Positions 1 to 44,415 of a stretch of DNA of 64,000 bases are shown here, one piece after another. The number at the start of each line of letters is the position of its first letter. Within the stretch, counting starts at the first letter, position 1. Where the stretch lies: positions 704,001-768,000 of the forward strand of contig CAXXJV010000001.1 of assembly GCA_963663475.2 (NCBI GenBank). The letters are read 5' to 3'. The DNA comes from Candidatus Cloacimonadales bacterium (lineage in GTDB: Bacteria; Cloacimonadota; Cloacimonadia; Cloacimonadales; JAFGVF01). The position numbers were made by a program, and so were the translations under genes. A model generated the notes under the pieces. The model was not told where the DNA came from, searched no databases, and worked only from the letters and a program-made list of their open reading frames with translations.

Positions 1-260
1 TAGAACTGGAAAGGCAATATATTAAAGCTAAATGCCAACTACCAATCAAAGTGTATTATCAGAATATAATAGTAGGTGATTACTTCGCAGATATTGTAGT
101 AGGAAATAAGATAATTTTAGAATTAAAACATGTTAATGAGCTAAACCTAGCACACGAAGCACATTTGTTAAATTACCTTAAAGCTACAGGTATAAAAGTT
201 GGCTATTGGATAAACTTTGGAAAACCAAATGGTTTAGATTTTAAAAGATTAGTCTTTTAA
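1..260 (+). CDS. GxxExxY family protein (5'-truncated by window edge)
   Basis: Frame is open back to the window edge (ELERQYIKAKCQLPIKVYYQ...). YFADIVV..KIILELK..AHEAHLLNYLKATG..G..INFG is the typical GxxExxY C-terminal half; paralog at 33570. Confidence 0.85.
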   Translation, partial: ELERQYIKAKCQLPIKVYYQNIIVGDYFADIVVGNKIILELKHVNELNLAHEAHLLNYLKATGIKVGYWINFGKPNGLDFKRLVF

Positions 261-271
261 AAATATTCTTT

Positions 272-300
272 TCAGTGTTTTCTGTGTATTCACTGGCTAA
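272..300 (-). repeat. Inverted copy of repeat module C (ttagccaccgaaaacaccga type)
   Basis: Reverse complement ttagccagtgaatacacagaaaacactga resembles the copies at 23861 and 36950. Confidence 0.65.
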
Positions 301-4906: not shown

Positions 4907-5837
4907 CCTTTATTCTATAGTTTTATTATCTTACTATAGTGAAAAAAGATTAAAAGATGTTTATAGAATCGCTAGTGAAAGCTTTGAAAAAGAAAGTATC
5001 CCTTTTGAGTTTATAATTATGGATGATGGCTCAAAAGATAAATCATTCGAAAAGGCATTGGAATTAGAAAAGCAATATGAGAACATTAGAGCATACCAGC
5101 TTAGCAAAAACTATAATAGTCAATATTCAAAATTTGCAGGCTTTTCAATAGCAAGAGGTTCATGTGTTACTTCAATGCCAGATGATGGACAAGTTCCGAT
5201 AGATGTATATGTTAAAATGTATAGGTTATGGCAAAAAGGAGAAAAGGTAATCATACCATATAGAGAAAAACGGAACGATGGCATTGTTTCAGATGCTTTT
5301 TCAAGTAGTTATTATAAGGTAATGAATTATTTTAGCGATGTGAAATTTCCTAAAGGTGGGGCAGATATCTTCACTATAGACAGGGAAGTATTAGATATAG
5401 TAAACAATAGGATCCATCCGATAAATACATCAATGCTTGTTGAGGTATTAAGGTTAGGGTTTGATCCTTATTTTTTTGGGTTTGAAAGACCACAAAATAA
5501 ATATTGCAAGTCTAGATGGACAATGAGAAAGAAAATTAAACATGCAAAAGATACTTTTTTTTCATCTTCATCTTTTCCTATAAAATTGATTACTGGGTTA
5601 GGTATTAGTTCTTCATTTTTTTCGATTTGCTTAATTTTTTTTTCAATTTGGTATAAGTTATATGGAAATATATACATAGCTGGATTTTCAATACCTGGTT
5701 GGACTACCACATTAATATTTATTTCGATGTTTTCTGGATTAATTTTGTTAAGTTTGGGAATCATTTCAGAATATATTTGGAGAATATATGAAGAAGTGAA
5801 AGATAGACCAGGATATATTATAAAGAAAAAAGAATAG
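4896..5837 (+). CDS. GT2 polyprenyl-phosphate glycosyltransferase (GtrB-like)
   Basis: IMDDGSKD, LSKNY, C-terminal TM pair, GIISEYIWRIYEEVKDRPGYI. Confidence 0.88.
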   Translation: MENNLYSIVLLSYYSEKRLKDVYRIASESFEKESIPFEFIIMDDGSKDKSFEKALELEKQYENIRAYQLSKNYNSQYSKFAGFSIARGSCVTSMPDDGQVPIDVYVKMYRLWQKGEKVIIPYREKRNDGIVSDAFSSSYYKVMNYFSDVKFPKGGADIFTIDREVLDIVNNRIHPINTSMLVEVLRLGFDPYFFGFERPQNKYCKSRWTMRKKIKHAKDTFFSSSSFPIKLITGLGISSSFFSICLIFFSIWYKLYGNIYIAGFSIPGWTTTLIFISMFSGLILLSLGIISEYIWRIYEEVKDRPGYIIKKKE

Positions 5838-22066: not shown

Positions 22067-23131
22067 GTGAAAAAAATAGAAAGAGTTTTAATTTCTGTTG
22101 GACACCCTGCTCAAGTTCATCAGTTCAAATATGTATATAGAGAGTTGAACAAGTTAAATATTAGAATTTTATTTGTCGCTCAAGATAAGGAAATATCATT
22201 ATACCTTCTAGATGTTTATAAGCTACCATTTGTATCTATAAGTAAACCTAGAAAGGGTTTGATAAAAAAAATTTCAAATATTCCAGGCAACTGTGTTAAG
22301 TTTTTAGGAATTTGTAAAAGTTTTAAACCAAATCTTATTTTAAGTAGAGGAGCGATATATACAACTTGGATAGCAAAACTACTGAAGATACCGCACTTGA
22401 GTTTTGCAGATACTGAACATATAAATATTGTTGATAAGATAACAGTTCCTTTTATAACTTACAAGCTAACTTCCTTATCATATAACAAAAATTTAGGAAA
22501 AAATCATTTTAAATTTTCAGGTAATATTGAACTTTTTTATATGCACCCAAATTATTTTAAACCAAGAAAACAGCCAAAAGGAAAGGGTAAAAAGATTTTA
22601 CTGAGATTTGTTGCTTGGGATGCATATCATGATGTAGGTCATCATGGCCTAACTCTAGAATTTAAGCTAAAACTGATTAATACTTTAATTAAGTATGGAG
22701 AAGTTTTAATCTCTTGTGAAACTGTTCTACCTGGGCAGTTAGAACAGTTTAGAATTACTATAAAACCAGAAGAAATGCATTCTTTGATGTATAATGTTGA
22801 TTTATTCATTGGAGAAGGGGCATCTATGGTATCAGAATGTGCCTGTATAGGAACACCAGCTATATATGTAAATCCTTTAAGTACTGGTTATATCGATGAA
22901 CTTGAAACATATAACCTTGTTTTTCAGTATCGAAATTCTGTCGGAGTTATTAGCAAAGCTATAGAACTATTAGAAATGAATAATATCAAAGAAGAGTGGC
23001 TAGATAGACTTAATGTTTTCATTAATAATTGTATTGACCCAACTGCATTAACAGTTTGGTTTGTTGAAAATTATCCTAAAAGTGTAGAAGTTCTAAAAAA
23101 AGACCCAAACTATCAAATGAGATTTAAATAA
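22067..23131 (+). CDS. DUF354 GT-B fold protein
   Basis: HPAQVH.FK, DTEH, LRFVAWDAYHD, GEGASMVSECACIGTPAI. Confidence 0.8.
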   Translation: MKKIERVLISVGHPAQVHQFKYVYRELNKLNIRILFVAQDKEISLYLLDVYKLPFVSISKPRKGLIKKISNIPGNCVKFLGICKSFKPNLILSRGAIYTTWIAKLLKIPHLSFADTEHINIVDKITVPFITYKLTSLSYNKNLGKNHFKFSGNIELFYMHPNYFKPRKQPKGKGKKILLRFVAWDAYHDVGHHGLTLEFKLKLINTLIKYGEVLISCETVLPGQLEQFRITIKPEEMHSLMYNVDLFIGEGASMVSECACIGTPAIYVNPLSTGYIDELETYNLVFQYRNSVGVISKAIELLEMNNIKEEWLDRLNVFINNCIDPTALTVWFVENYPKSVEVLKKDPNYQMRFK

Positions 23132-23859
23132 TGGATTTCACCTTTACCCAATACCAAAATTTACTTAAATATAAGCAAATCTCTTTTCGGCACGACGTAG
23201 ATAGAAAGCCTGAAAAATCACTTAAAATGGCTCAGTTGGAACATCAGTATGATGTTCAAGCAACCTACTATTTTAGGATGAAGCCAGAGTCATATAATGA
23301 AAATATAATCAAAGAAATTATCAATTTGGGGCATGAAATAGGATATCATTATGAATCTTTATGTGATTCAAAAGGTGATTTTGCTTTAGGTATTGAAGAT
23401 TTTAAACAAAACTTAGCTAAGCTGAGAAAACTTTATCCTGTTAAGAAAATTGCTATGCATGGTAGGCCTACAAGTCCTTATGATAGTCGAGATTTATGGA
23501 AGAAGTATGATTATCGAGAGTTTGGGATTGAGTATGAACCATACTTTGATACTGATTATAATGAAGTATTGTACATAACTGATGCTGGAAGAGCTTGGGG
23601 AGATGATTCTATTAATAGAAGGGATAGGGTTACTAGTAAGTATGATTTTGATTTGACATCGCTAGATAAGATATTGAAGCTTTTAGAGAATGGTCAGCTT
23701 CCGGAAAAGATTATTATGAATATACATCCGGAGCATTGGGCTGAGAGTAATTTAGAGTGGTGGATAATCTGGGGGAAGAGGAAGGTGAGAAACTTCGTTA
23801 AGAGGGTGTATCTGATTTTCACCACAGAGACACAAAGAACACAAAAAAAGAAAGAGTAA
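23131..23859 (+). CDS. Polysaccharide deacetylase-like protein (paralog 1)
   Basis: RHDVD, TYYFR, GHEIGYHYE, MHGRP, YITDAG, HPEHW. Confidence 0.7.
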   Translation: MDFTFTQYQNLLKYKQISFRHDVDRKPEKSLKMAQLEHQYDVQATYYFRMKPESYNENIIKEIINLGHEIGYHYESLCDSKGDFALGIEDFKQNLAKLRKLYPVKKIAMHGRPTSPYDSRDLWKKYDYREFGIEYEPYFDTDYNEVLYITDAGRAWGDDSINRRDRVTSKYDFDLTSLDKILKLLENGQLPEKIIMNIHPEHWAESNLEWWIIWGKRKVRNFVKRVYLIFTTETQRTQKKKE

Positions 23860-24155
23860 ATTAGCCACCGAAAACACTGAAAACACCGATAAGAGGAAGA
23901 TTTTAACACAAAAACTCGAAAAATTCACAAAAACACAGCTTGCTATGCAAGAACGAAAAGATAAAAGTGAAAAACTATAAGAGGTTTAGTGTTGAGAGTT
24001 TAGGGTTTAGATGGAGTGATAAAGAGATTAAATAATTTAAATTCTTCACACGAATTTCACGAATAAGAAATCCCTTACATCGCTTGCTGCGCCAAAATGA
24101 TAAATTAAAGAAAGTTTATCACCAAACCAAGAAAATTCACAAAAACACAAAAAAA
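23818..24155. repeat. Modular repeat mosaic block (degenerate)
   Basis: ttcaccacagagacacaaagaacacaaa, ttagccaccgaaaacactga, cttgctatgcaag, ggtttagtgttgagagttta, cacacgaatttcacgaat; all recur elsewhere in the window. Confidence 0.8.
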
Positions 24156-28619: not shown

Positions 28620-29155
28620 GAATGAAAAGATAAAAATGAAAAATGAAAGAGCTTTTACACGAATTAACTCGAATTAAAACGAATTTACTTGCTTCGCAAG
28701 AATGAAAAATTAAAAGTGAAAAATGAAGAATAAGAATAGAACACAGATGACTCTGATTGAACAGATTAAAACTGATAAGAATGATTAAATAAGGTGAGGG
28801 TTGAGAGTATAGTGTATAGGAAGAATATCGGTGTATTCGGTGTGTTCGGTGGCTAATTTTTTTGTGTTCTTTGTGTCTTTGTGGTGAAAGAGAGATGCTT
28901 GCTTCGCAAGAAAAATAAGAATAGAACACAGACGGCTTGCTTCGCAAGAATGAAAAATTAAAAGTGAAAAATGAAGAATAAGAATAGAACACAGATGACT
29001 CTGATTTAACAGATTTACACTGATATGAAGATTTAAAAATGTAAAAGTTTTATTTATCAATATGATAAAACTCTGTGTTAAGGGTTTTCTTCTTTCAGTG
29101 ATTTCGATGGCTATTTTATTTTCTTTTCAGTGAAATTAGCGTAATTCGTGGATAA
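28620..29155. repeat. Modular repeat mosaic block
   Basis: Module A acacgaattaactcgaattaaaacgaat, three cttgcttcgcaag hairpins, 7-mer tgaaaa(a/g) runs, inverted modules B and C. Confidence 0.9.
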
Positions 29156-29174
29156 TATACCTTAAGGGGAAATT

Positions 29175-30551
29175 ATGAAAAAGACATTGTATTTGATATT
29201 AGTTATTATTTTAGTCTTGATTCTAAATAGTTGTGATAGTTCTACGTCATCTTCTGATGATAAAGTTACTTATAGTGGTGTGGTAAAACTTATAGATTTA
29301 GATGGAAATGAAACTGTTTCAGATGAAGTTACTGTAGCTGTCTTTGAAAAAGATATGGATGATGTGGCCTGGGATTATAGAGTAAATAATCCAATACTTG
29401 TTACAACTACTAATGAATTTGGTGAATTTTCCTATAAAGCTAAGGAAAGAGAAAATTATTATACATACTTTTTGAAAGAAGGGTATTCTATTAAGTCCTT
29501 CAATCAGAATAATTTGCCAGAAAACATTCTACTGTATGAAGATTTGGTCGTGGAAGGAACTATTACAGAGCAAATCATTTTAGAGGGAAAATCTGACTTA
29601 CTTGTTACAGATGATGTAATTTTTACAGAAACTGCTTCCTTAATTATTCAAGAAACATCGCAGATTAGGATTGCACCAGGAAAAAAAATAACAGTTTATG
29701 GAAGTGTGGATTTTCAAGATCCAGTAGATATTACGTCTAATGATAAATCATATTCTTATGGAGAAGACCAAATAAGTGAGTTTTTATCTTTTGAGATAAC
29801 TCCAACTGCTAACATTCAAACTAATACTATTGATAACCTAAAGTGTTCTTTAACAAATTATGGCTTTGTTATAAGAAAAGATAATATCCAAATCAGTAAT
29901 TCAATTTTTGTCAATTCTTCGAACGGGCTCTATATTCTTAATTCAAGTGGTCATATTTTAACACATATCACTGCAAAGAATATAAAAAATGAAAGCAATG
30001 GTGGGATTTATTTAGACTTTGTAGAAAATGCCACTATTAGTAGATGTTTGCTTCAGGGTAATTATAATGGGGTTAAAGTTAAAGAAGTTAGAAATGTTGA
30101 TATTAATAATACTCTTTTTGAAAATAATAGTGCTGGATATCTGAGTTATTATTCAACGGGAGTTGTTACTAATAACAGTTTTGAAAAAAATGATTACGGG
30201 CTAGAATTACTAGCTAACAGAGGAGCTGGTGTCCTAACTATTAAGTATAATAAAATTGAATATAGTGATGTCGGTGTATATCAACATGAGGCTGGTTCAT
30301 GGAATACATTTAATTCAATGATTATTAATAATAATAATTTCATAGATGTTGATACATTTATTAAATATGATTCTTCTGGAATTCAACAAGACTTAGATGC
30401 TAAAAACAATTATTTTGATGGATTAGCTGCTGAAAGTAGTATTCAAGATAGAATTATTGATACTACATGGCAGGATTATGGTTTTATTGATGTAAATATT
30501 ATTCCTTTTAAGACAAGGCCGATTAGTGGAGCAGGGATAATTCAAGAGTGA
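29175..30551 (+). CDS. Putative lipoprotein with right-handed parallel beta-helix
   Basis: Signal peptide with LILNS-C lipobox; Asn-rich beta-helix repeats (NTLFENN, NNSFEKN, NNNNF), LDAKNNYF. Confidence 0.7.
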   Translation: MKKTLYLILVIILVLILNSCDSSTSSSDDKVTYSGVVKLIDLDGNETVSDEVTVAVFEKDMDDVAWDYRVNNPILVTTTNEFGEFSYKAKERENYYTYFLKEGYSIKSFNQNNLPENILLYEDLVVEGTITEQIILEGKSDLLVTDDVIFTETASLIIQETSQIRIAPGKKITVYGSVDFQDPVDITSNDKSYSYGEDQISEFLSFEITPTANIQTNTIDNLKCSLTNYGFVIRKDNIQISNSIFVNSSNGLYILNSSGHILTHITAKNIKNESNGGIYLDFVENATISRCLLQGNYNGVKVKEVRNVDINNTLFENNSAGYLSYYSTGVVTNNSFEKNDYGLELLANRGAGVLTIKYNKIEYSDVGVYQHEAGSWNTFNSMIINNNNFIDVDTFIKYDSSGIQQDLDAKNNYFDGLAAESSIQDRIIDTTWQDYGFIDVNIIPFKTRPISGAGIIQE

Positions 30552-30559
30552 TACTCTTG

Positions 30560-31675
30560 AAAGTGAAAAGATAAAAGTGAAAAATGAAAAATATTTTGCT
30601 TCGCAAAAAAGACGGGGTGACAGGAAGATGGGGTGATGAGGAGATGCTTGCTTCGCAAGAAAATAAGAATAGAACACAGACTGCTTGCTTCGCAAGAATG
30701 AAAAATTAAAAGTGAAAAATGAAGAATAATATATGAAGACTGATTAATAGGCATAGGGCCTGTAATCAGTCTTTTTTTTTTGCTGAAAATTATTTACACG
30801 AATTAAACTTGCTTCGCAAGAATGAAAAATGAAAAGATAAAAATGAAAAATTAAGATATTTAGCCACCGATAACACCGAAAAACACCGAGAAGAGGAAGA
30901 TTTTTATCCACTAATGGGCACTGATTAACACGAATAAGTTTTTAGCCATTTGGCTAAAAGAAGGGGTGACGGGAAGACGGAGAGACGGGGAGATGCTTGC
31001 TTCGCAAGAATGAAAAATGAAAAGTGAAAAATGAAAAGTTTAATATTTTTTATTTGACATGTAGGATTAGCTTGCAAGAATGAAAAAAGGAATGATTTTG
31101 CTTTGCAAAATGACGGGGAGACTGCTTGCTTACGCAAGAATGAAAAATTAAAAGTGAAAAGTGAAAAATAGGTTTAGTGTTGAGAGTTTATGAATTTAAA
31201 AAACTCTGTGAAACACCTCTTGCCCTCTGTGTAACTCTGTGTTAAGGATCTTAGTGAAATTAGTGTAATTAGTGGATAGGTTCTCATTTCATGAGAGTGA
31301 ATAATGAAAAGATAAAAATGAAAAGTATAATATTTTTTATTTGACATGTAGGATTAGCTTGCAAGAATGAAAAAGATGAATTTTGCTTTGCAAAATGACG
31401 GGGAGACTGCTTGCTTCGCAAGAATGAAAAATTAAAAGTGAAAAGTGAAAAATAGGTTTAGTGTTGAGAGTTTATGAATTTAAAAAAAACTCTGTGAAAC
31501 ACCTCTTGCCCTCTGTGTAACTCTGTGTTAAGGATCTTAGTGTAATTAGTGGATAGGTTCTCATTTCATGAGAGTGAATAATGAAAAGCTAAAAGTGAAA
31601 AATGAAAAATTATCTGTGTTAATCTGTGTAATCTGTGGACAGAAAACTTAATTCGAGTTAATTCGTGTGAAGAAT
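30560..31675. repeat. Modular repeat mosaic block containing a 287-bp-period tandem duplication
   Basis: 31041-31325 is nearly identical to 31328-31600; several cttgcttcgcaag, gacgggga 8-mers, inverted modules D, G and A. Confidence 0.9.
30736..30781 (+). terminator. Intrinsic terminator downstream of the lipoprotein gene
   Basis: aagactgatta...taatcagtctt stem followed by a T run. Confidence 0.75.
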
Positions 31676-31712
31676 TTCTGTTAAATAAATAAATTTGAGA
31701 GAAGGTAGCGTG

Positions 31713-33320
31713 ATGAAAAAGAAGGTTTGGTATTTATTGTATTTACTGTTAGATATAGGGATAGTGCTATTTGCCTTTGCGATTGTCGCATGGCTAAGGA
31801 ATGGAACACGTCGTGTTTTAGTTGATTATTCTAAGCCAGTGTTGGGGTTATCACTTGCTTGGGTAGGGGCTGGTTTTTTAGGAGGGAAGTTTTCTATTAA
31901 GAACAAGCCTAGGTTAAGGGCCTTGTGGGCTTCTATTATCAAGTGTGATGCCATAGCGATTGCGGTTGTCTTTGGGGCAATGTTCTTTTTTCATAGATTT
32001 CAGTATTCCCGTTATGTTACTTTTGGAACTATAGGTTTAACAATATTTATAGAACTGATAATATTTGGTTTATTGTATTATTCTTTCCAATTCCATAAGG
32101 ATAATCCATCTTTTGCTAAAACTACTTTTATTACTAAGTCTAAGAAGTTAGAGGAAGAGGGATCTGCTTATGAGTTAGCTAAGTTTGAATCTTCTGATAA
32201 GGTTCCTGATAGTCCAGTTAAGCTAGTAAAGCATTATTGCTTAGAAGATAAAAAGCACAAGGAATCTATTAAGCAAGTTTTAAGGGATAAGTATTTACAT
32301 AATGATGATAAGGTTTTTGAGTTTATTAATAAATACTTAGATCTAGATTGTTTTTGTAAGGATAAAGCACTGGTATTGAACAGTCATGCTCTTTATAACA
32401 TAGAAAACATTGAAGAGCAATCACAAGCTCTCTTTATAAATTTACACAAGGCTAATAATTTTCGCAGGATAAATAAGTATATAATTCAGGTGAATGATAA
32501 CCTGACTCAGGGAGGTGTCTTTGTTGGTTGTGTGGAGACTAAGGCTCAGCGTCGGAGACGATTTATTGAGTCTTATACTGTCGTTTTTGGGAATATTTTC
32601 TATTTAATTGATTTCTTTTTACGTCGTGTCTTTCCTAAAATAGCCTTACTCAAAGGACTCTACTTCTTCATTACTAAGGGAAAGAATAGGGCTTTTAGTG
32701 AGACTGAGATTTTGGGCAGGCTTTACTTCTGTGGTTTTGAGCTTTTAGCTAAGAGAGAGATTCATGGGATAAATTATTTCATTGCTATCAAGACTAAAGA
32801 ACCTTCTCGAGATGAGAATCCATCTTATGGTCCTATTATTCAGCTTAAGCGTAAGGGGAAGAATGGTAAACTTCTCTATGTTAATAAATTCAGGACTATG
32901 CATCCTTACTCTGAATATCTACAGGACTATGTGTATAAGACCTGTAGTTTACAGGAAGGTGGGAAGTTTAAGAATGATTTCCGGGTTACTAGGTGGGGAA
33001 AGGTATTTCGGAAGTTATGGATTGATGAGTTGCCGCAGTTTATTAATTTCTTTAAGGGTGAGCTTAATTTGGTAGGGGTAAGGGCCTTGAGTGAGCATTA
33101 TTTTGGGCTTTATCCACAAGATGTAAGAGAGTTGAGGGTGAAGGTTAAGCCGGGGTTGTTGCCTCCTTTTTATGCGGATATGCCGAAGACTTTTGAGGAG
33201 ATCGTGGAATCGGAGAGGAAGTATTTGGTGCAGAAGATAGAGAGGCCGGTGTGGACGGATTTTAAGTATTTCTGGTTGGTGCTGTGGAATATACTCGTAA
33301 AGAAAGCACGCAGTAATTAA
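31713..33320 (+). CDS. Priming sugar transferase (Bac_transf C-terminal domain, N-terminal TMs)
   Basis: KFRTM, DFRVTRWGKVFRKLWIDELPQ..GELNLVGVR, VKPGL. Confidence 0.85.
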   Translation: MKKKVWYLLYLLLDIGIVLFAFAIVAWLRNGTRRVLVDYSKPVLGLSLAWVGAGFLGGKFSIKNKPRLRALWASIIKCDAIAIAVVFGAMFFFHRFQYSRYVTFGTIGLTIFIELIIFGLLYYSFQFHKDNPSFAKTTFITKSKKLEEEGSAYELAKFESSDKVPDSPVKLVKHYCLEDKKHKESIKQVLRDKYLHNDDKVFEFINKYLDLDCFCKDKALVLNSHALYNIENIEEQSQALFINLHKANNFRRINKYIIQVNDNLTQGGVFVGCVETKAQRRRRFIESYTVVFGNIFYLIDFFLRRVFPKIALLKGLYFFITKGKNRAFSETEILGRLYFCGFELLAKREIHGINYFIAIKTKEPSRDENPSYGPIIQLKRKGKNGKLLYVNKFRTMHPYSEYLQDYVYKTCSLQEGGKFKNDFRVTRWGKVFRKLWIDELPQFINFFKGELNLVGVRALSEHYFGLYPQDVRELRVKVKPGLLPPFYADMPKTFEEIVESERKYLVQKIERPVWTDFKYFWLVLWNILVKKARSN

Positions 33321-33332
33321 GAGAATCAAGAT

Positions 33333-33525
33333 TCTTTACACGAATTAACACGAATGAAAACGAATTTCTCGAATTTTCTTTTTGCTAAGAGTAAAAAGGA
33401 AAGAGACATAAATAACAGAAAAAGAAATAAAAAGAACTAAAAAAAAGAAAAAAATAAAAGTAAGAATATGAAGAAAACTGAGAATTATGACATAACTTAT
33501 TTAAGGTATATTCGTGTGAAGCATT
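33333..33525. repeat. Left repeat flank of the GxxExxY gene
   Basis: Module A forward + A-rich spacer + partial inverted module A; 33338-33513 matches 34084-34260. Confidence 0.9.
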
Positions 33526-33569
33526 TAGTGTGAAAAATTTAGTTTTAAGTAATAAATTATAGAGAAGAG

Positions 33570-33950
33570 GTGGTTGTGATTTTATACAAAGAGGAGAGTT
33601 ATAAGATAATTGGCCGTTGTTTTACTGTTCATACTAATCTAGGTGTCGGTTTTAGTGAGCTAGTCTATCATGAAGCTTTAATGAAGGAATTTGATAAATA
33701 TAATATACCTTATGAACACGAAGCAAAAATTGAAATTGAATATAAAAATGAAAAATTAGAAAAAAAATACTATGCTGATTTTTGTTGTTATGATAAAATA
33801 CTGTTAGAAATAAAGGCATGTTCTCATATAAATGATGAGCATGTTAAACAGGTTCTTAATTATCTAGCTGCTACTAAGCTAAAGTTAGGGATTATTATTA
33901 ATTTTGGAGAAAAAAGCTTAACTTATAAAAGAGTGATATTTGATAAATAA
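33570..33950 (+). CDS. GxxExxY family protein (PD-(D/E)XK-like)
   Basis: LYKEESYKIIG..VH..LGVGFSELVY (GxxExxY), YYADF, LLEIKA, QVLNYL..G.IINFG. Confidence 0.92.
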   Translation: MVVILYKEESYKIIGRCFTVHTNLGVGFSELVYHEALMKEFDKYNIPYEHEAKIEIEYKNEKLEKKYYADFCCYDKILLEIKACSHINDEHVKQVLNYLAATKLKLGIIINFGEKSLTYKRVIFDK

Positions 33951-33964
33951 AGACAAGATAAAAG

Positions 33965-34483
33965 CTACTACACGAATTAACTCAAGTTAAAACGAATAAG
34001 ATGCTTTACACGAATTAACTCGAAGGAGGCTTCATACATTATGCCCTCCCAGGTTAAAACGAATTTCTCGAATAAGATGCTCTACACTAATTAACACGAA
34101 TGAAAACGAATTTCTCGAATTTTTTTTTTGCTAAGATTAAAAAGGAAAGAGATATAAAGAACAGAAAAAGATAATAAAAAGAACTAAAAAAAGAAAAAAA
34201 ATAAAAGTAAGAATATGAAGAAAACTGAGAATTATGACATAACTTATTTAAGCTATATTCAGATTAATTAGTGAAATTCGTTTTCATTCGAGTTAATTTG
34301 TGTGAAGAATTTATTTGAAGCATTTAGGAGAAAAAATGCAGACAAACACGAAAAATAATAAATATCAAAAAAGATAAAAAGTGTGCAGATAATAAACAAG
34401 TGGACAAGAAAGTGTTGACTTTATACTTACAAAAAAAAATAATTCGTGAAATTCGTTTTAATTTGCGTTAATTCGTGTGAAGA
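33965..34483. repeat. Right repeat flank of the GxxExxY gene
   Basis: Several forward module-A arms, second copy of the ~176-bp repeat, inverted arms at ~34268-34308 and 34441-34483. Confidence 0.9.
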
Positions 34484-34524
34484 AATTATTTGAAGTATTA
34501 AGTTTGAAGAATTTAGGAGAAAAG

Positions 34525-35580
34525 ATGAAGATATTAATAACAGGAACTGCTGGTTTTATCGGCTTTCATTTAGCGAACAGGTTGCTCCTCGAGCAAGATG
34601 TTGAGATAATAGGTTTAGATGTAATTAATGATTATTATGATTTAAGAGTGAAGTTTGGTAGATTAGCTGAACATGGTTTCCCCATGCAGAATATTAGGTA
34701 TGGGGAGATTCTGCAGAGTGAGAAATACGCAAATTATAGATTTATTAAATTAGATTTATGTGATAGGGCCAAGCTATATAACTTATTCATAGATGAAAAA
34801 TTTGATGTGGTAGTAAATTTAGCTGCTCAAGCAGGTGTTCGGTATAGTATTACAAATCCGGAGGCCTATCTAGAGAGTAATATTATCGGTTTCTTTAATA
34901 TTTTAGAGGCAGCACGTAAGAATAAAATTAAGCATTTAGTCTATGCCTCCAGCTCTAGTGTATATGGCTGGAATGACAAACTTCCTTTCTGCACTACTGA
35001 TAACGTGGATCACCCTATCTCTCTCTATGCTGCTAGTAAGAAATCTAATGAACTCCTAGCTCATTCTTATAGTGCCCTGTATGATTTACCTACTACTGGA
35101 TTAAGATTCTTCACTGTGTATGGTCCTTGGGGCAGACCAGATATGGCTCTTTTCCTTTTTGCCAAAGCAATTGCTGAAGGAAAGGCAATCGATGTTTATA
35201 ATCATGGTAAGATGAAAAGAGATTTTACTTACATTGATGATATTGTAGAAGGTATTAAAAGAGTAATCTATCATCCTGCTCAAGCTATGCCAGAGTGGAA
35301 TGGCCAGAATCCTACTCCAGGAGCTTCAAAAGCACCGTATAAAATCTATAATATTGGGAATAATGATACAGTATTGCTTATGGATTTTATCGAGGCTATA
35401 GAGGAGGAAATGGGCAAGAAGGCTATAAAGAATATGCTACCATTGCAGCCAGGAGATGTGCCTGCTTCGCATGCGGATGTTACGGATTTGGTGGAGGATT
35501 TGGGGTATAGACCTAATACGCCTATTCGGGAAGGGGTGAAGAGGTTTATTGAGTGGTATCGGGATTTTTATAAAATCTAA
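34525..35580 (+). CDS. NAD-dependent epimerase (UDP-glucuronate 4-epimerase family)
   Basis: GTAGFIG, LAAQAGVRYS, YAASKK, FFTVYGPWGRPDMA, QPGDV; ATG 34525 follows an aggag SD. Confidence 0.93.
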   Translation: MKILITGTAGFIGFHLANRLLLEQDVEIIGLDVINDYYDLRVKFGRLAEHGFPMQNIRYGEILQSEKYANYRFIKLDLCDRAKLYNLFIDEKFDVVVNLAAQAGVRYSITNPEAYLESNIIGFFNILEAARKNKIKHLVYASSSSVYGWNDKLPFCTTDNVDHPISLYAASKKSNELLAHSYSALYDLPTTGLRFFTVYGPWGRPDMALFLFAKAIAEGKAIDVYNHGKMKRDFTYIDDIVEGIKRVIYHPAQAMPEWNGQNPTPGASKAPYKIYNIGNNDTVLLMDFIEAIEEEMGKKAIKNMLPLQPGDVPASHADVTDLVEDLGYRPNTPIREGVKRFIEWYRDFYKI

Positions 35581-35585
35581 AAGAT

Positions 35586-35817
35586 TCTTTACACGAATTA
35601 ACTCGAATTAAAACGAATTTCACGAATAAGATACTCTACACTAATTAACACGAATTAAAACGAATTACTTTTGCTAAAAGCAAAAATAAAAGAGGAAAAA
35701 AAGAAAATGATAAAAAGAGGGCTGATAAATAACAAATGGACAAAAAGTATTAACTTCTTATTTCGAAAAAGGTTAATTCGAGAAATTCGTTTTAATTCGT
35801 TTTAATTCGTGTGAAGA
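35586..35817. repeat. 42-bp imperfect inverted repeat (module A) spanning the intergenic gap
   Basis: 35586-35627 pairs with 35776-35817: 38 Watson-Crick, 1 U.G, 3 mismatches. Confidence 0.92.
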
Positions 35818-35835
35818 CTTTTGATAGGATAAAAT

Positions 35836-36225
35836 ATGATAAATACTTCGAAATATACAAGATGGGGTTTATTTCTCTATCTTATAACGCTGGTTACTGT
35901 TTCGGTGATGCCACTGGGAAATGCCAGTAAAGAATTGACAGATATTACTGTGATTCGAATTAGAGGGGATTACTTTCTCCATATGTTGGTGTATTTGCCT
36001 ATGATTAGTCTGATGCTGCTTAGTTTTCCTAAATGGAAATGGGGGATGGTGGTTATTGCACTTGGCTTGGGGGTAGGACTTGAATACTTGCAGATGCTGC
36101 TTAGTTATAGGGCCTTTAATATTAATGATTTGGTGGCGAATCTTGGGGGAGTGGTTATTGGAGGAGGGATTTTCGCCTTTCGGCTCAAAGATGCTTGCTT
36201 CGCAAGAATTAAAAATGAAAAATAA
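35836..36225 (+). CDS. VanZ-family membrane protein
   Basis: DYFLHMLVY, LEYLQ..LSYRAFNINDLVAN.GG. Confidence 0.85.
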   Translation: MINTSKYTRWGLFLYLITLVTVSVMPLGNASKELTDITVIRIRGDYFLHMLVYLPMISLMLLSFPKWKWGMVVIALGLGVGLEYLQMLLSYRAFNINDLVANLGGVVIGGGIFAFRLKDACFARIKNEK

Positions 36226-36342
36226 TAGAGCTTTTTACCTTTCGGCTCAAAGACGGGGAGACGGGGTGACGGGGAGAAATGAGAACCTATCCACAAATAA
36301 ACACAAATTAACGCGAATTAAGACGAATTTCTCGAATTTTAT

Positions 36343-37517
36343 TTCACCACAAAGACACAAAGACACAAAAAAAATTATCCACGAATAAACACAAATTAAC
36401 ACTAATAATCTATATCTTAAAATCCTTAACACAGAGTTTCACAGAGGTCCCACAGAGTTACACAGAGTTTTTTAATTCCTAAACGCTAAACTCTCAACAT
36501 TACTAAACTTTTAAATCTTTAAATCATTCTTCACCACAAAGACACAAAGAACACAAAAAAAATTATCCACGAATAAACACAAATTAACACTAATAATCTA
36601 TATCTTAAAATCCTTAACACAGAGTTACACAGAGATCACCACAGAGTTACACAGAGATCACCACAGAGTTACACAGAGTTTTTTAATTCCTAAACGCTAA
36701 ACTCTCAACATTACTAAACTTTTAAATCTTTAAATCATTCTTCACCACAAAGACACAAAGAATACAAAAAATTTATCCACGAATAAACACAAATTAACAC
36801 TAATAATCTATATCTTAAAATCCTTAACACAGAGGGCAAGAGGAGTTTCACAGAGTTTTTTAATTCCTAAACGCTAAACTCTCAACATTACTAAACTTTT
36901 AAATCTTTAAATCATTCTTCACCACAAAGACACAAAGAACACAAAATAATTAGCCACCGAAAACACCGAATACACCGATATTTTTCCTATACGCTATACT
37001 CTCAACCCTCACCTTATTAAATCATTAAACTCTTAAATCTTTAAATCAATCTTATCAGTTTTAATCTGTTCAATCAGAGTCATCTGTGTTCTATTCTTAT
37101 TTTCTTGCGAAGCAAGCATCTCTCTTTCACCACAAAGACACAAAGAACACAAAAAAAATTATCCACGAATAAACACAAATTAACACTAATAATCTATATC
37201 TTAAAATCTTTAACACAGAGTTACACAGAGGGCAAGAGGAGTTTCACAGAGTTTTTTAATTCCTAAACGCTAAACTCTCAACACTACTAAACTTTTAAAT
37301 CTTTAAATCATTCTTCACCACAAAGACACAAAGAACACAAAATAATTAGCCACCGAAAACACCGAATACACCGATATTTTTCCTATACGCTATACTCTCA
37401 ACCCTCACCTTATTAAATCATTAAACTCTTAAATCTTTAAATCAATCTTATCAGTTTTAATCTGTTCAATCAGAGTCATCTGTGTTCTATTCTTATTTTC
37501 TTGCGAAGCAAGCATCT
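36343..37517. repeat. Higher-order tandem array of 177-211 bp composite units (A-A-A-B-A-B)
   Basis: Units start with ttcaccacaaagacacaaag at 36343, 36530, 36741, 36918, 37126 and 37314. Confidence 0.95.
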
Positions 37518-37632
37518 TAGTGGTGAATATATATTTTTTTAACTTTTTTTGAGAAAAGTGACCATTTTTAAAAAAAAGGCCTCTTAAAGATTATGAAGGC
37601 TATAAGCCAAATAAAAAAAATGAGGTAATAAA

Positions 37633-38067
37633 ATGATGGTATCAAAAAAAGGTAAAGAGGAAAAAAGAGCTTTTGGCAGAAACAAGGGAAATGTAGCAAA
37701 TTGCTTATTTGCTGAAGATGTAGTGAGTGATGTAAATAAGGTAGTTAGTAATTTATCTGGTTTGGATGCTTATTTAGAAATTGTGGAATCAACTCTTGAT
37801 TATTTTACAGCAAATATGAAGTCTATGATTGCTGATCTGAAGGGAAATATCTTGAATGATATTTTTGAACTTAATCTTGTAATTGATGAGGCGGAAGAAG
37901 TTGATTGTGATGGGTGTTTGTATTCTGAAGCAGATGAAGATTCTACTGAAGATGAGGAGGAGATGCTGGATGAGGATGCATGGAGTCTAGCTTTAGCAAA
38001 AGAACTTATTACTAAGGTTAAAAAAGTAATTGAAAAAATTGATTTTTTAAATTATGAAAAAGTATAA
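37633..38067 (+). CDS. Hypothetical acidic protein
   Basis: 144-aa ORF with gaggt SD, non-repetitive, lying between repeat blocks; family not recognised. Confidence 0.65.
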   Translation: MMVSKKGKEEKRAFGRNKGNVANCLFAEDVVSDVNKVVSNLSGLDAYLEIVESTLDYFTANMKSMIADLKGNILNDIFELNLVIDEAEEVDCDGCLYSEADEDSTEDEEEMLDEDAWSLALAKELITKVKKVIEKIDFLNYEKV

Positions 38068-38071
38068 GACA

Positions 38072-38149
38072 ATGATTGCCTGGCTAGTTTTAATTATTAT
38101 TTGGGGATTTTTTATACTTGATATCCATATTCTTAATAGGATGGGATGA
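38072..38149 (+). CDS. Possible 25-aa hydrophobic peptide
   Basis: MIAWLVLIIIWGFFILDIHILNRMG starts 4 nt after the upstream stop; no clear SD. Confidence 0.25.
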   Translation: MIAWLVLIIIWGFFILDIHILNRMG

Positions 38150-38204
38150 TAAGAGTGGTTTAGGTGGAGGAAGAGACAGTGCCCTCTTTGTTCTTGTGAA
38201 TGAA

Positions 38205-38565
38205 GAGGGATTTTCGCCTTTCAGCTCAAAGATGTTTGCTTCGCAAGAATTAAAAATGAAAAATAAGAAGATTCTTTACACGAATTAACACGAATTAAAA
38301 CGAATTACACGAATTTTATTTCACCACAAAGACACAAAGAACACAAAGAAGAAGATTCTTAACACAGAGTTACACAGAGGTCACCACAGAGTTACACAGA
38401 GGTCACCACAGAGTTACACAGAGTTTTTAAGATATTGATTATTAGTGTTAATATGTGTTTATTCGTGGATAAGTTCTCATTTCATGAGAGTGAATAATGA
38501 AAAGATAAAAATGAAAAATAAAAGAGCTTTGCTCAAAGACGGGGAGACGGGGTGACGGGGAGAGT
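38205..38565. repeat. Modular repeat mosaic block
   Basis: Copy of 36164-36225, modules A, B, D, inverted G, tctcatttcatgaga hairpin, gacgggg 8-mers. Confidence 0.9.
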
Positions 38566-38814
38566 AAACATTCCTTACACAGACCGGAGTTCCTCAGCCG
38601 TAGGCAAGGGACTTCGGGCGAAGAGTGTCGGAAGTCGCTACTCCGTGAGCAACTCCCGTCACTCCTAATTAGGGTAAAGAATCTCTTTTTTTCTTATCAG
38701 TGTTTTCAGTTACTAAATCTTCTAACTAGTAGATTCTAAAAGGCTCAAGTTCAAGTCTGGTGGGAATAATATAGGAAAATGAGAATATTTCATTACTATA
38801 TTGATTCATCAAAA

Positions 38815-38915
38815 ATCCCTGAAAGGGATAAAATAATTTAGCCCAGGGTAAGATGCTGAAAGTATCGCAACCCTGGGTAATGATGGCTAGCCCAAAGATA
38901 TTACCCTGTAAGGGT
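38815..38915. repeat. REP-like multi-hairpin element
   Basis: atccct-gaa-agggat; cccagggt...accctggg enclosing gatgct-gaa-agtatc; accct-gta-agggt. Confidence 0.7.
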
Positions 38916-38941
38916 TTAATAAAAGGATAAATAATGAAAGA

Positions 38942-39205
38942 GCTTTTACTCGAATTAACACGAATTAAGACGAATTTCACGAATTTTATTTCACCACAAA
39001 GACACAAAGAACACAAAGAAGTAGATCCTTAACACAGAGTTACGCAGAGTTTTTAAGAGAAGGGAGGGAGAAAATTGCCACCGAAAACACGAAGAAGGTT
39101 TTCACCTTTCGGCTCAAAGACGGAGTGATGGAGTGATGGAGAGATAGAGAGACGGAGAGATAGAGAGACGGAGAGACGGAGAGACGGAGATAGAGATTGA
39201 GAGAG
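38942..39205. repeat. Modular repeat block ending in nine tandem 8-mers
   Basis: 38948-39050 matches 38278-38380; ga(c/t)(g/a)gag(a/t) x9 at 39119-39190. Confidence 0.9.
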
Positions 39206-39222
39206 AAAAAAATCCTTTTATC

Positions 39223-43297: not shown

Positions 43298-43354
43298 TAG
43301 TATCCACGAATTACACTAATTATACTAAAAAGATGGTAAATGGGAAGAATGGGG

Positions 43355-43513
43355 AAGCAGGGATGCTTATGGACTGATGGCATCCTGCCATCAGATTTGT
43401 GCAAGCAGGGATGCTTATGGACTGATGGCATCCTGCCATCAGATTTGTGCAAGCAAGGATGCTTATGGACTGATGGCATCCTGCCATCAGATTTGTGCAA
43501 GCAAGGATGCTTA
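43355..43513. repeat. 48-bp REP-like tandem repeat x3 plus partial copy
   Basis: aagcagggatgcttatggactgatggcatcctgccatcagatttgtgc at 43355, 43403, 43451; palindrome ctgatggca-tcc-tgccatcag; further partial copy at 43931-43980. Confidence 0.92.
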
Positions 43514-43612
43514 CACTCCATAGGCTCCGTAACCACTTGTCATCTGCGTAAAAGCGGGCTGGAATCTCACGACTCAAATACGGGCAGACTTTTAGCAAGC
43601 TAATTTTTTCCT

Positions 43613-43680
43613 AAACTCTGTGTAACTCTGTGATAACCTCTGTGGACTCTGTGTTAAGGTTCTTAAAAAATCCGTGGATA
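43613..43680 (-). repeat. Inverted module D/G repeat
   Basis: ctctgtg x4 and aatccgtggata, which pairs with tatccacgaatt at 43301. Confidence 0.8.
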
Positions 43681-43744
43681 GACTTCTTTTGTAGGTAGTA
43701 TTATACTGCCTACTGCGGGCAAGGATGCCCGCCTTCCCAGTTAG

Positions 43745-43914
43745 TCCCGCGACCCAATCCCGTAACCACTTGTCACCTGCGTAAACGCGGGCTAGAATCC
43801 CGCGACCCAATCCCGTAACCACTTGTCACCTGCGTAAACGCGGGCTAGAATCCCGCGACCCAATCCCGTAACCACTTGTCACCTGCGTAAACGCGGGCTA
43901 GAATCCCGCGACCC
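43745..43914. repeat. 53-bp REP-like tandem repeat x3 plus partial copy
   Basis: tcccgcgacccaatcccgtaaccacttgtcacctgcgtaaacgcgggctagaa at 43745, 43798, 43851; diverged copy at ~43527-43575. Confidence 0.92.
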
Positions 43915-44415
43915 CTTTTTACACAGTCTGGGCATCTTGCCATCAGATTTGTGCAAGCAAAGATGCTTCCACTCCATAGGCCAGCAAAGAATCTAGCACT
44001 CTTCACCTGTAATACGTAGCGTTAGCGAAGTATTATCAAAGTTTTAATGCACTATTCGGGTATAATATTAGAGGAAATAGATAAAATAGGCAAAAAAATA
44101 ATGATAAAAATCAGAATAAAAGCAGAAAAAAATTAAAAAACACAAAAAAAATAAAAAAAAGTTAAAATAAGAAAATTAAAATGCTAAAAGCATATATTCC
44201 AGATAAATAACAGGCTAAAAAACCTAAAAGCACAAAATAGAGAAAAAAGGCTATTTATAAGCTTTTTAGGAAGATAAGAAAGTGAAAAAGATATTCCCAA
44301 CTTATTGAATAATAACATTTTTTCAAAAAAGTATTTGACAGTAAAGGGGGTAAAATAAAGCTTGTTTAAGAATTTGGTACGATATTTGAAAAATACAGAG
44401 TGTGAAAAATAATTC

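Follow-up and report, generated by a model that had tools for sequence, protein, structure and literature searches.

Small genes of the GxxExxY family (PF13366) in a Cloacimonadales bacterium and its relatives lie between inverted arms built of short, phased repeat units, and the unit follows the protein subfamily. Here we analyse a 64,000-nucleotide (nt) stretch of one such genome (hereafter referred to as the window; positions 704001–768000 of contig C1), the large intergenic gaps of which are mosaics of these units. The genome (G000) comprises 3.30 Mb in two contigs (C1 and C2) with a GC content of 33%. The link between the repeat grammar and the GxxExxY family is real and specific: the arms flank the genes, each subfamily carries its own unit across lineages, the core of the unit is conserved, the occupants of fixed slots turn over between species, and the arms are dispersed as gene-less copies. 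We favour, with some reserve, the interpretation that the modules stem from small selfish gene cassettes with hairpin arms: some flank a cassette gene, and many others are gene-less copies of such arms, a progeny resembling repetitive extragenic palindromes (REPs). The GxxExxY protein may, furthermore, act on the modules as an enzyme.

Inverted arms of GxxExxY and four-helix-bundle genes

To characterize the flanks of GxxExxY genes, we compared G000 with six independently assembled Cloacimonadales genomes of the same genus and surveyed 260 nt on each side of the 24 distinct GxxExxY loci in the seven genomes. The genus genes lie between a CAC-strand array and its reverse complement, in either an arm–open reading frame (ORF)–arm layout (type I), in which the arms frequently adjoin the start and stop codons directly (as in L017, L024 and L027), or a hairpin–ORF–hairpin layout (type II). 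Because the arms are too imperfect for exact seeds (a genome-wide scan with 9-nt seeds gave 203 inverted pairs, 9 of them CAC/GTG-rich), we scored inverted arms by local alignment of the upstream and downstream flanks. Twelve of the 24 loci reached or exceeded the 99th percentile (28.8) of 2,622 control genes of this genome.

Seven of the nine items of the repeat vocabulary match gene arms in this or a same-genus genome, six of them around GxxExxY genes and one around four-helix-bundle genes. Among the subfamily 1 genes, module A (CACGAAT) flanks the intact gene of the window and its orthologues in G004 and G006, module G (CACTAAT or CACAAAT) flanks L017, L024 and L027, and module H (CACAGAT) flanks L029 and L031. 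Among the subfamily 2 genes, module D (CACAGAG) flanks the two other intact genes of this genome and L013, L016, L019 and L022, and module B (CACAAAG) flanks L026. Module C (CACCGA) flanks the gene of L023. The TGAAAAR 7-mers and the CTTGCTTCGCAAG hairpin have no gene-arm match among the genus loci. A first-pass annotation of the window had tied the whole vocabulary to GxxExxY; this assignment stands for six items, whereas the GACGGGGA and GATTGAGA 8-mers belong to four-helix-bundle cassettes.

The same architecture recurs far beyond the phylum. We fetched 80 subfamily 1 loci from one-per-species genomes (Bacteroidota, Planctomycetota, Verrucomicrobiota, Ignavibacteria, Omnitrophota, Lentisphaerae, Atribacteria and others), 74 of which had full flanks, and the best inverted alignment between their upstream and downstream flanks again consists of CCAC-G/A/T-AAT units. 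Twenty of the 74 real pairs exceeded the 99th percentile of mismatched locus pairs (38.4), a high value that reflects the similarity of arms between phyla. A strict double CAC-N-R-AT motif occurs within 200 nt of the gene at 46 of the 74 loci, as against 4 inside the ORF and 15 in the far flanks; by this motif, 22 loci have the type I order and 7 the reverse order. The consensus of the subfamily 1 unit is CAC, R, A (79%), A (95%) and T (76%), at a spacing of 9–10 nt. For subfamily 2, recognized by its NFN...NG(I/V)KR tail, we used 69 loci on metagenome contigs (GC content of 35–65%), the flanks of which carry CAC-R-GAG, CACGAAG or CACCAAG units at a spacing of 8–9 nt.

Arm type and subfamily are strongly associated. 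CAC-N-R-AT arms were found at 54 of the 74 subfamily 1 loci (CAC-N-R-AG arms at 2), and CAC-N-R-AG arms at 64 of the 69 subfamily 2 loci (the AAT type at 1), a distribution with a Fisher P value of 9e-31, uncorrected for relatedness. Moreover, in same-genus genomes that carry both subfamilies each keeps its own arm type, which controls for the genome background. Given the arms in the genus, those in other phyla and their co-variation with the subfamily, we dropped the possibility that the GxxExxY link is coincidental.

The arm sequences are constrained unevenly. Within the unit, the two arms of a locus mismatch at 1–8% of core positions, compared with 28% at offset 3 and 23–31% in the spacer. 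At type I loci, these mismatches comprise 28 that are G.U-compatible in the sense RNA, 37 A.C and 86 transversions, with no bias towards G.U wobble. Since pairing alone would not protect the core of the unit, a sequence-specific reader is the simplest explanation, and the pattern of core versus spacer suggests sequence-specific recognition rather than simple base pairing. The obvious candidate for this reader would be the protein encoded by the cassette, since unit and subfamily vary together.

The intact gene of the window matches PF13366 with 128.7 bits (cut-off 22) and TIGR04256 with 134.5 bits (cut-off 35). Six residues are invariant in 82 aligned GxxExxY sequences (G25, G27, E30, D70, E80 and K82), and Y33 is at least 90% conserved. 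A predicted structure (mean predicted local distance difference test (pLDDT) score of 95.9) has its best fold matches among PD-(D/E)XK nucleases: the BpuSI nuclease domain (Z 8.1), Cas4 SSO0001 (Z 8.0) and Hjc (Z 6.3). The PD-(D/E)XK-like core that the first-pass annotation had assigned to the family is borne out by the invariant D...ExK residues and by the model, of which the matches indicate the superfamily fold and nothing more specific. A search by sequence found no solved structure for the family, and PF13366 is listed as of unknown function in the 2012 survey of the PD-(D/E)XK superfamily (PMC3424549). PF13366 is present in 88 of the 121 genomes of our phylum sample, in up to 19 copies each, and in many other phyla. 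The four matches in this genome all lie in the glycan locus, at C1:697–738 kb; the six same-genus genomes have 2–5 matches each, clustered in the same locus. Of the 24 genus loci, 5 are split or interrupted by stops.

A second family shares the architecture. Genes of the four-helix-bundle family PF05635/TIGR02436 (23S_rRNA_IVP), one in G001 and one in G004, are bracketed by inverted purine-rich 8-mer arrays, and their 8-mers (GACGGGGA; GATTGAGA / GATGGAGA) are those of the first-pass vocabulary. G000 itself lacks PF05635, which makes its 8-mer arrays orphans. Of the 121 phylum genomes, 94 carry the family, and at 19 of 28 phylum loci with full flanks the tandem-unit inverted arms exceeded the 95th percentile of mismatched pairs, with units that vary greatly between loci. 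In G001 (L015:3640–3730), the 5′ arm of a four-helix-bundle cassette is GACGGGGAGACGGGGTGACGGGGTGACGGGGAG, with four G4 runs and 4-nt spacers, which we take to fit the usual G-quadruplex pattern.

We also observed a conserved motif of ~45 nt (GGTGCTTCAGAT...ATCTGTAAGTCATAGGGCGAAGCTTGC) with two apparent nested stems beside GxxExxY cassettes. It occurs at L142:2134–2152, 2936–2954 and 5003–5021 (C1:697–700 kb of G000) and in L019, L022, L026, L031, L143, L144 and L145. It matches no Rfam family; at permissive E-values, L142 gave only sub-threshold microRNA-precursor models, which are generic hairpins.

Slot turnover and gene-less arms

A comparison of orthologous positions revealed that the cassettes replace one another. 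The slot between the Bac_transf sugar-transferase and epimerase genes is occupied by a subfamily 1 GxxExxY gene in three genomes (G000, G004 and G006), by a subfamily 2 gene with 29–32% identity to that occupant in G002 and G003, and in G001 by the four-helix-bundle gene (PF05635) that the 8-mer arrays bracket. At a second slot, where G000 has a GxxExxY gene, G001 carries a four-helix-bundle gene with arms of 16-mers. In G002, remnants of an older GxxExxY gene, namely the last ~30 nt at its 3′ end and its outer arm, persist beside a newer G-armed cassette. Between the two subfamily 2 copies in G000, a stretch of 527 bp that spans the ORF and the arms is 92% identical; the two genes that lie between these copies are missing from G006, which has one copy, and in G004 some 10 kb lie between the two flanking matches at this locus. 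Cassettes sit at junctions where blocks of glycan genes differ between species. In a sister genus (L228 in G009 and L229 in G007), the sugar transferase, a 316–318-amino-acid (aa) gene and the epimerase follow one another with an overlap and gaps of 10–22 nt that contain no repeats; the repeat-filled gaps belong to this genus and not to the operon.

The repeats themselves are real and non-random. The named gaps consist of the words listed in the first-pass annotation, at the positions given there, and the modules occur in both orientations, as it had described. Exact module words of 13–18 nt occur 9–20 times in the genome, compared with an expectation of 0.00–0.02 per strand. The double-unit CAC-N-R-AT pattern has 129 raw matches and the CAC-N-R-AG pattern 191, as against 9 and 3, respectively, for the same patterns read backwards. 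Arrays of period 7–12 detected with Tandem Repeats Finder (TRF) are about six times denser in intergenic than in coding sequence (0.88 versus 0.15 per kb), and CAC/GTG-rich arrays make up 129 of 339 intergenic but 41 of 437 coding ones; C1:650–750 kb, which contains the window, holds 40 of these 129. The A module is 83–98% identical across the six same-genus genomes, whereas the flanking genes are 77–89% identical, so that the repeats are neither artefacts nor neutral leftovers. An assembly artefact is excluded because six independently assembled same-genus genomes carry the same module families at matching places.

Using the unit patterns, we counted 230 arrays in the genome: 100 of the AAT type, 118 of the AG type and 12 of the CACCGA type. 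Seventy-one of them lie in C1:664–744 kb, which is 2.4% of the genome. A strict triple-CAC detector, which gave 105 arrays, overlapped with control cores and was dropped. Arrays also occur in a tailed prophage of ~23 kb, present in three to four copies with 94–100% identity (C1:1–23300, C1:1367842–1391200, C2:1–10700 (reversed) and C2:307565–331000) and encoding a terminase, portal, head protease and tape measure protein. Its intergenic gaps contain CACGAAG, CACAGAG and other phased modules, and the PF13366 scan of the genome found no GxxExxY gene in it.

Proposed selfish cassettes and alternative explanations

In the model that we favour, a cassette consists of one short ORF, encoding a 125-aa GxxExxY nuclease or, in relatives, a four-helix-bundle protein, inside two inverted arms. 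Each arm comprises about three phased units of 7–10 nt, with the CAC strand 5′ and the GTG strand 3′, often abutting the start and stop codons, and cassettes are placed in the sense direction in operons, mainly of the glycan locus. The cassette's own protein may read the phased units as a duplex, either as a double-stranded arm or as a stem formed by the two arms, and may rely on them to maintain or propagate the cassette, whether through homing-like repair, transposition or recombination. Gene-less arms would be relics or non-autonomous copies, related to the cassettes as REPs are to genes of REP-associated tyrosine transposases (RAYTs). In the operon transcript, the paired arms would probably also form a stem, similar to that of an intervening sequence, that sets the guest ORF apart. 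Cycles of insertion and replacement, together with arm–arm recombination, could yield the shuffled grammar and help in reshuffling glycan genes. We rank the REP/RAYT-like and homing-like account first, with the RNA role as a likely additional function and not as an alternative. A bolder version is possible but more doubtful: GxxExxY cassettes could be unrecognized, phylum-spanning minimal selfish elements of ~0.45–0.55 kb, each with one small PD-(D/E)XK nuclease gene and two inverted arms of phased 8–10-nt units that are subfamily-specific and read by the nuclease itself. Such an element would spread or maintain itself through its arms; shed gene-less arms would multiply like REPs, in prophages as well, and recombination between arms would reshuffle glycan loci; and this design would have sister forms in the four-helix-bundle (S23p) cassettes and in rRNA intervening sequences.

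If correct, this model offers the first testable clue to the recognition target of a widespread family, the candidate target being inverted pairs of three phased CAC-R-AAT (subfamily 1) or CAC-R-GAG (subfamily 2) units. It would explain a puzzling repeat grammar as layered cassette arms, bring rRNA intervening sequences and the genes of the GxxExxY and four-helix-bundle families together in one architecture, and point to a possible source of rearrangement in surface-glycan loci. Our literature search found no description of GxxExxY arms or of such cassettes; new here are the mapping of the vocabulary to cassettes, the co-variation of subfamily and arm, the constraint on core versus spacer and the four-helix-bundle parallel.

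Several observations weigh against the model. The first-pass annotation proposed that the modules are cis sites of GxxExxY, acting mainly in a surface-glycan locus. Arms do flank the genes and their unit tracks the subfamily, but 205 of the 230 arrays lie farther than 2 kb from a GxxExxY gene and 25 within that distance; likewise, all four GxxExxY genes are in the glycan locus, but 116 arrays are in neither the glycan region nor the prophage, and the prophage copies hold 43. Twelve of the 24 genus loci scored below the control threshold, five of them broken genes that were scored from truncated ORF ends. The epimerase, VanZ and sugar-transferase genes of the glycan locus also score high for inverted arms, because A arms fill every gap of the locus. 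The co-occurrence with GxxExxY that the annotation had put forward as a check holds in part: across the 121 phylum genomes, gene copies and AAT-type pattern counts correlate moderately (Spearman 0.44, uncorrected for phylogeny), but 8 of the 33 genomes without GxxExxY have at least 5 pattern matches (one has 97) and three genomes with 8–11 GxxExxY genes have 0–2, in counts for which draft assemblies may have lost GxxExxY genes and the AAT pattern misses other unit types. The subfamily 1 and subfamily 2 samples were drawn from two different collections. Every orthologous slot in the genus is occupied, and gene order in the sister genus is compact and different. We found no clean pair of an empty and a filled site with exact boundaries, and the arm ends inspected in genus loci showed no target-site duplication. 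As the four-helix-bundle family, which is not a nuclease family, uses the same architecture and slots, the architecture does not need a cassette-encoded nuclease. Finally, the enzyme-plus-sites account is built from comparative data, from which binding, cleavage and movement are extrapolated.

Among the closest known parallels is the REP/REPIN–RAYT system (PMC3337134, PMC3116915). In this system, a low-copy gene is flanked by its own inverted repeats, with many gene-less copies and a repeat type for each gene group. The present elements are alike in that cognate repeats flank the cassette gene in inverted orientation, are dispersed as many gene-less copies and differ in type by gene group. They are unlike it in that the genes belong to PF13366 (a 125-aa PD-(D/E)XK protein) or PF05635 and not to the Y1/HUH transposases, each arm repeats a 7–10-nt unit about three times in direct orientation and only two arms together give a palindrome, and the genes, frequently broken or replaced, are concentrated in a single glycan locus. 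This genome has four Y1_Tnp (RAYT-like) genes, away from the cassettes. A RAYT as mobilizer of the CAC modules was considered and rejected, since the Y1 gene examined (C1:198709–199278) is flanked by different, GC-rich repeats. These form palindromic repeats on both sides of the gene (region C1:198300–199800; units with ...CCGCGGGCTGGAATCCCGCGACCC...), and the same family forms tandem units at 43720–43910 of the window (region 43350–43980); it is a REP-like family separate from the CAC modules.

Mosaics and mobile elements of other kinds share single traits. Bacterial interspersed mosaic elements (BIMEs) of enterobacteria combine a small set of motif types, the order and orientation of which vary, and occupy intergenic gaps, mostly after genes. 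The mosaic here is similar in all these respects but has different motifs, forms tandem arrays rather than REP palindromes and is tied to specific gene cassettes. Some DNA transposons (such as Tn7 and Mu) and miniature inverted-repeat transposable elements (MITEs) have ends with several phased transposase-binding sites; the inverted ends, with about three sites each about one helical turn apart, and the gene-less derivatives resemble the arms here, where we see no DDE transposase, no target-site duplication and an orientation that goes with host transcription. Free-standing homing endonuclease genes are small nuclease genes between host genes, with a cycle of gain, decay and replacement in variable regions. 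The cassettes match them in being small nuclease genes wedged between host genes, in their gain, decay and replacement and in their clustering in a variable region, and differ in having conserved arms of their own on both sides; we know of no cleavage site in an empty allele for the cassette.

The strongest rival holds that the arms work in RNA only, as an operon-transcript stem of ~30 bp cut by host RNase III or a similar enzyme, that GxxExxY does not read them and that solo CAC-sense arrays after stop codons are elements of 3′ untranslated regions. We consider this unlikely, although several observations favour it. The closest described object is the ORF-bearing intervening sequence of 23S rRNA; that of Coxiella is 428–444 nt long, with a 28-bp terminal stem that RNase III cuts and an S23p ORF in the loop (PMC4990558), a size and shape that the cassettes match. 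Intervening sequences of this kind (Coxiella and Leptospira) share with them a length of ~0.45 kb and a terminal stem of ~28–30 bp, the loop of which contains a small ORF (PMC4990558), as well as a sporadic distribution and decaying ORFs, and the S23p (PF05635) four-helix-bundle genes occupy the same slots as GxxExxY in this genus. The neighbours of the cross-phylum genes are mostly on the same strand (44 versus 6 loci upstream and 49 versus 4 downstream), arms often abut start or stop codons, and the gap at 35581–35835 folds with a z-score of −6.98 (minimum free energy of −60.4 kcal/mol; none of 200 shuffles folds as well). Solo arrays in gaps between co-directional genes are polar, with 102 CAC-sense and 37 GTG-sense; 77 CAC-sense arrays lie in the half of the gap nearer the upstream stop and 31 GTG-sense arrays in the half nearer the next start, as against 6 and 25 for the reverse placements of array sense. 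This polarity fits a role at the RNA level at least as well as one at the DNA level and also counts against the selfish-cassette model. However, the type I arm mismatches lack the G.U bias, the core is conserved far above the spacer, which pairing alone does not explain, the subfamily-specific unit across lineages is not explained by a general host RNase, and many arrays have no inverse partner nearby (for example, at 36.3–37.5 kb). The cassettes also differ from 23S intervening sequences in that they lie between protein-coding glycan genes, with the rRNA operons elsewhere (as judged from 16S positions), their ORF is mostly of nuclease fold, and their arms are phased units with a conserved core; processing of the stem here would be an analogy.

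Two further alternatives fare worse. The modules might be ordinary, lineage-specific mosaic repeats of a BIME- or REP-like kind with no tie to GxxExxY, selfish genes having gathered in permissive gaps. The distance of most arrays from GxxExxY, their presence in prophage and in numbers in genomes without GxxExxY, and the A arms that likewise bracket the epimerase, VanZ and sugar-transferase genes would fit such repeats, but we judge them improbable: the same units flank the family in other phyla and in metagenomes with a GC content of 35–65%, neutral flanks would not stay conserved at 50–60% protein identity, and subfamily and arm type agree in 118 of 143 loci, with 3 of cross-type. The notion that the hairpins are attC-like sites of an integron-like cassette array draws on the imperfect palindromes after co-oriented ORFs and on gene content that varies between species. 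It is very improbable: the 39 ORFs of the window scanned against Pfam include no integrase and, as the first-pass annotation had stated, no transposase, cas or reverse transcriptase gene; the arms bracket the ORF rather than merely following it; the arm ends, read as TTRNCCAC...GTGGNYAA, do not fit the attC core boxes; and most glycan genes keep their order between species.

Features of the window

The first 36 kb of the window are a polysaccharide locus, with genes for nucleotidyl-, glycosyl- and acyl-transferases, a flippase-type protein, epimerases and a Bac_transf sugar transferase; murA, mnmA, a tRNA cluster and tuf follow 3′ of it. Rfam at gathering thresholds found five tRNAs in the window and nothing else. 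Both GxxExxY genes of the window, a pseudogene that ends at about 260 and the intact gene, are adjoined by modules, as the first-pass annotation had noted. The mosaic features are listed in Table 1.

Table 1. Repeat modules and GxxExxY genes in the window (window coordinates unless marked C1)
Feature	Position	Strand	Content
GxxExxY (PF13366) pseudogene, 3′ part	1..260	+	whole match C1:703904–704248; one in-frame TGA
3′ arm, GTG orientation	269..300	-	three ~9-nt units; inverted partner of CCACAGAA-type 5′ arm just upstream of window
B (CACAAAG) and C (CACCGA) modules	23817..23900	+	B gives last codons and stop of ORF 23131–23859
Mosaic gap	28620..29160		TGAAAAR 7-mers, A module, CTTGCTTCGCAAG hairpin x3, C and B modules (GTG orientation)
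Mosaic gap before sugar-transferase gene, first part	30552..31694		7-mers, hairpins, C module, GACGGRGA module
Mosaic gap before sugar-transferase gene, later part	within 30552..31694		D, G, H and A modules (GTG orientation)
A-type element upstream of GxxExxY gene	33321..33569	+	four ACGAAT units, small hairpin, A-rich loop, partial inverse arm
Intact GxxExxY gene, subfamily 1	33570..33950	+	PF13366 E 1.8e-37; TIGR04256 E 2.1e-39; D70, E80 and K82 present
A-type arms before epimerase gene	33951..34476		CAC 34059–34122; copy of upstream element; GTG 34276–34293 and 34442–34458
Gene-less hairpin element, epimerase–VanZ gap	35581..35835		A arms 35593–35667 (CAC) and 35776–35812 (GTG) close long stem
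CAC-sense module run	36197..37520	+	hairpin, GACGGGGA x3, G, A, then repeated composites B-G-D and B-C
Mixed modules	38198..38570		hairpin, A x4, B x3, D x6 (CAC-sense), G-type stretch (GTG), 7-mers, GACGGGGA x3
Modules and 8-mers	38940..39205	+	A x4, B x3, one D unit, then ten GAYRGRGW 8-mers
D-type modules x4, GTG orientation	43606..43680	-	embedded among unrelated GC-rich REP-like repeats

Most of the element upstream of the intact GxxExxY gene is repeated directly downstream of it, from ~34075, and the upstream gap itself folds more weakly (z-score of −2.08) than the epimerase–VanZ gap. The gap before the sugar-transferase gene contains an internal direct duplication, and the CAC-sense run at 36197–37520 has no inverse partners nearby. 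The GAYRGRGW arm type at the end of the mosaic region flanks four-helix-bundle genes in relatives and is an orphan here.

Two ORFs of the window end inside modules. The C terminus of ORF 23131–23859 (...TTETQRTQKKKE) is encoded by the part of the B module at 23817–23859, and the VanZ-like ORF at 35836–36225 ends inside a hairpin module (36170–36225) that recurs at 38210–38265; in both ORFs, modules have replaced the native 3′ end. A 144-aa ORF at 37633–38067, with an acidic C-terminal half, stands alone between two module-filled gaps and has no Pfam or NCBIfam match. The region at 38198–39207 has up to 93 BLAST matches per position genome-wide. Two GC-richer, structured-looking stretches lie among its modules, at 38560–38660 and 38820–38900, and the first of them has a partial copy in the prophage at C1:5860–5900.

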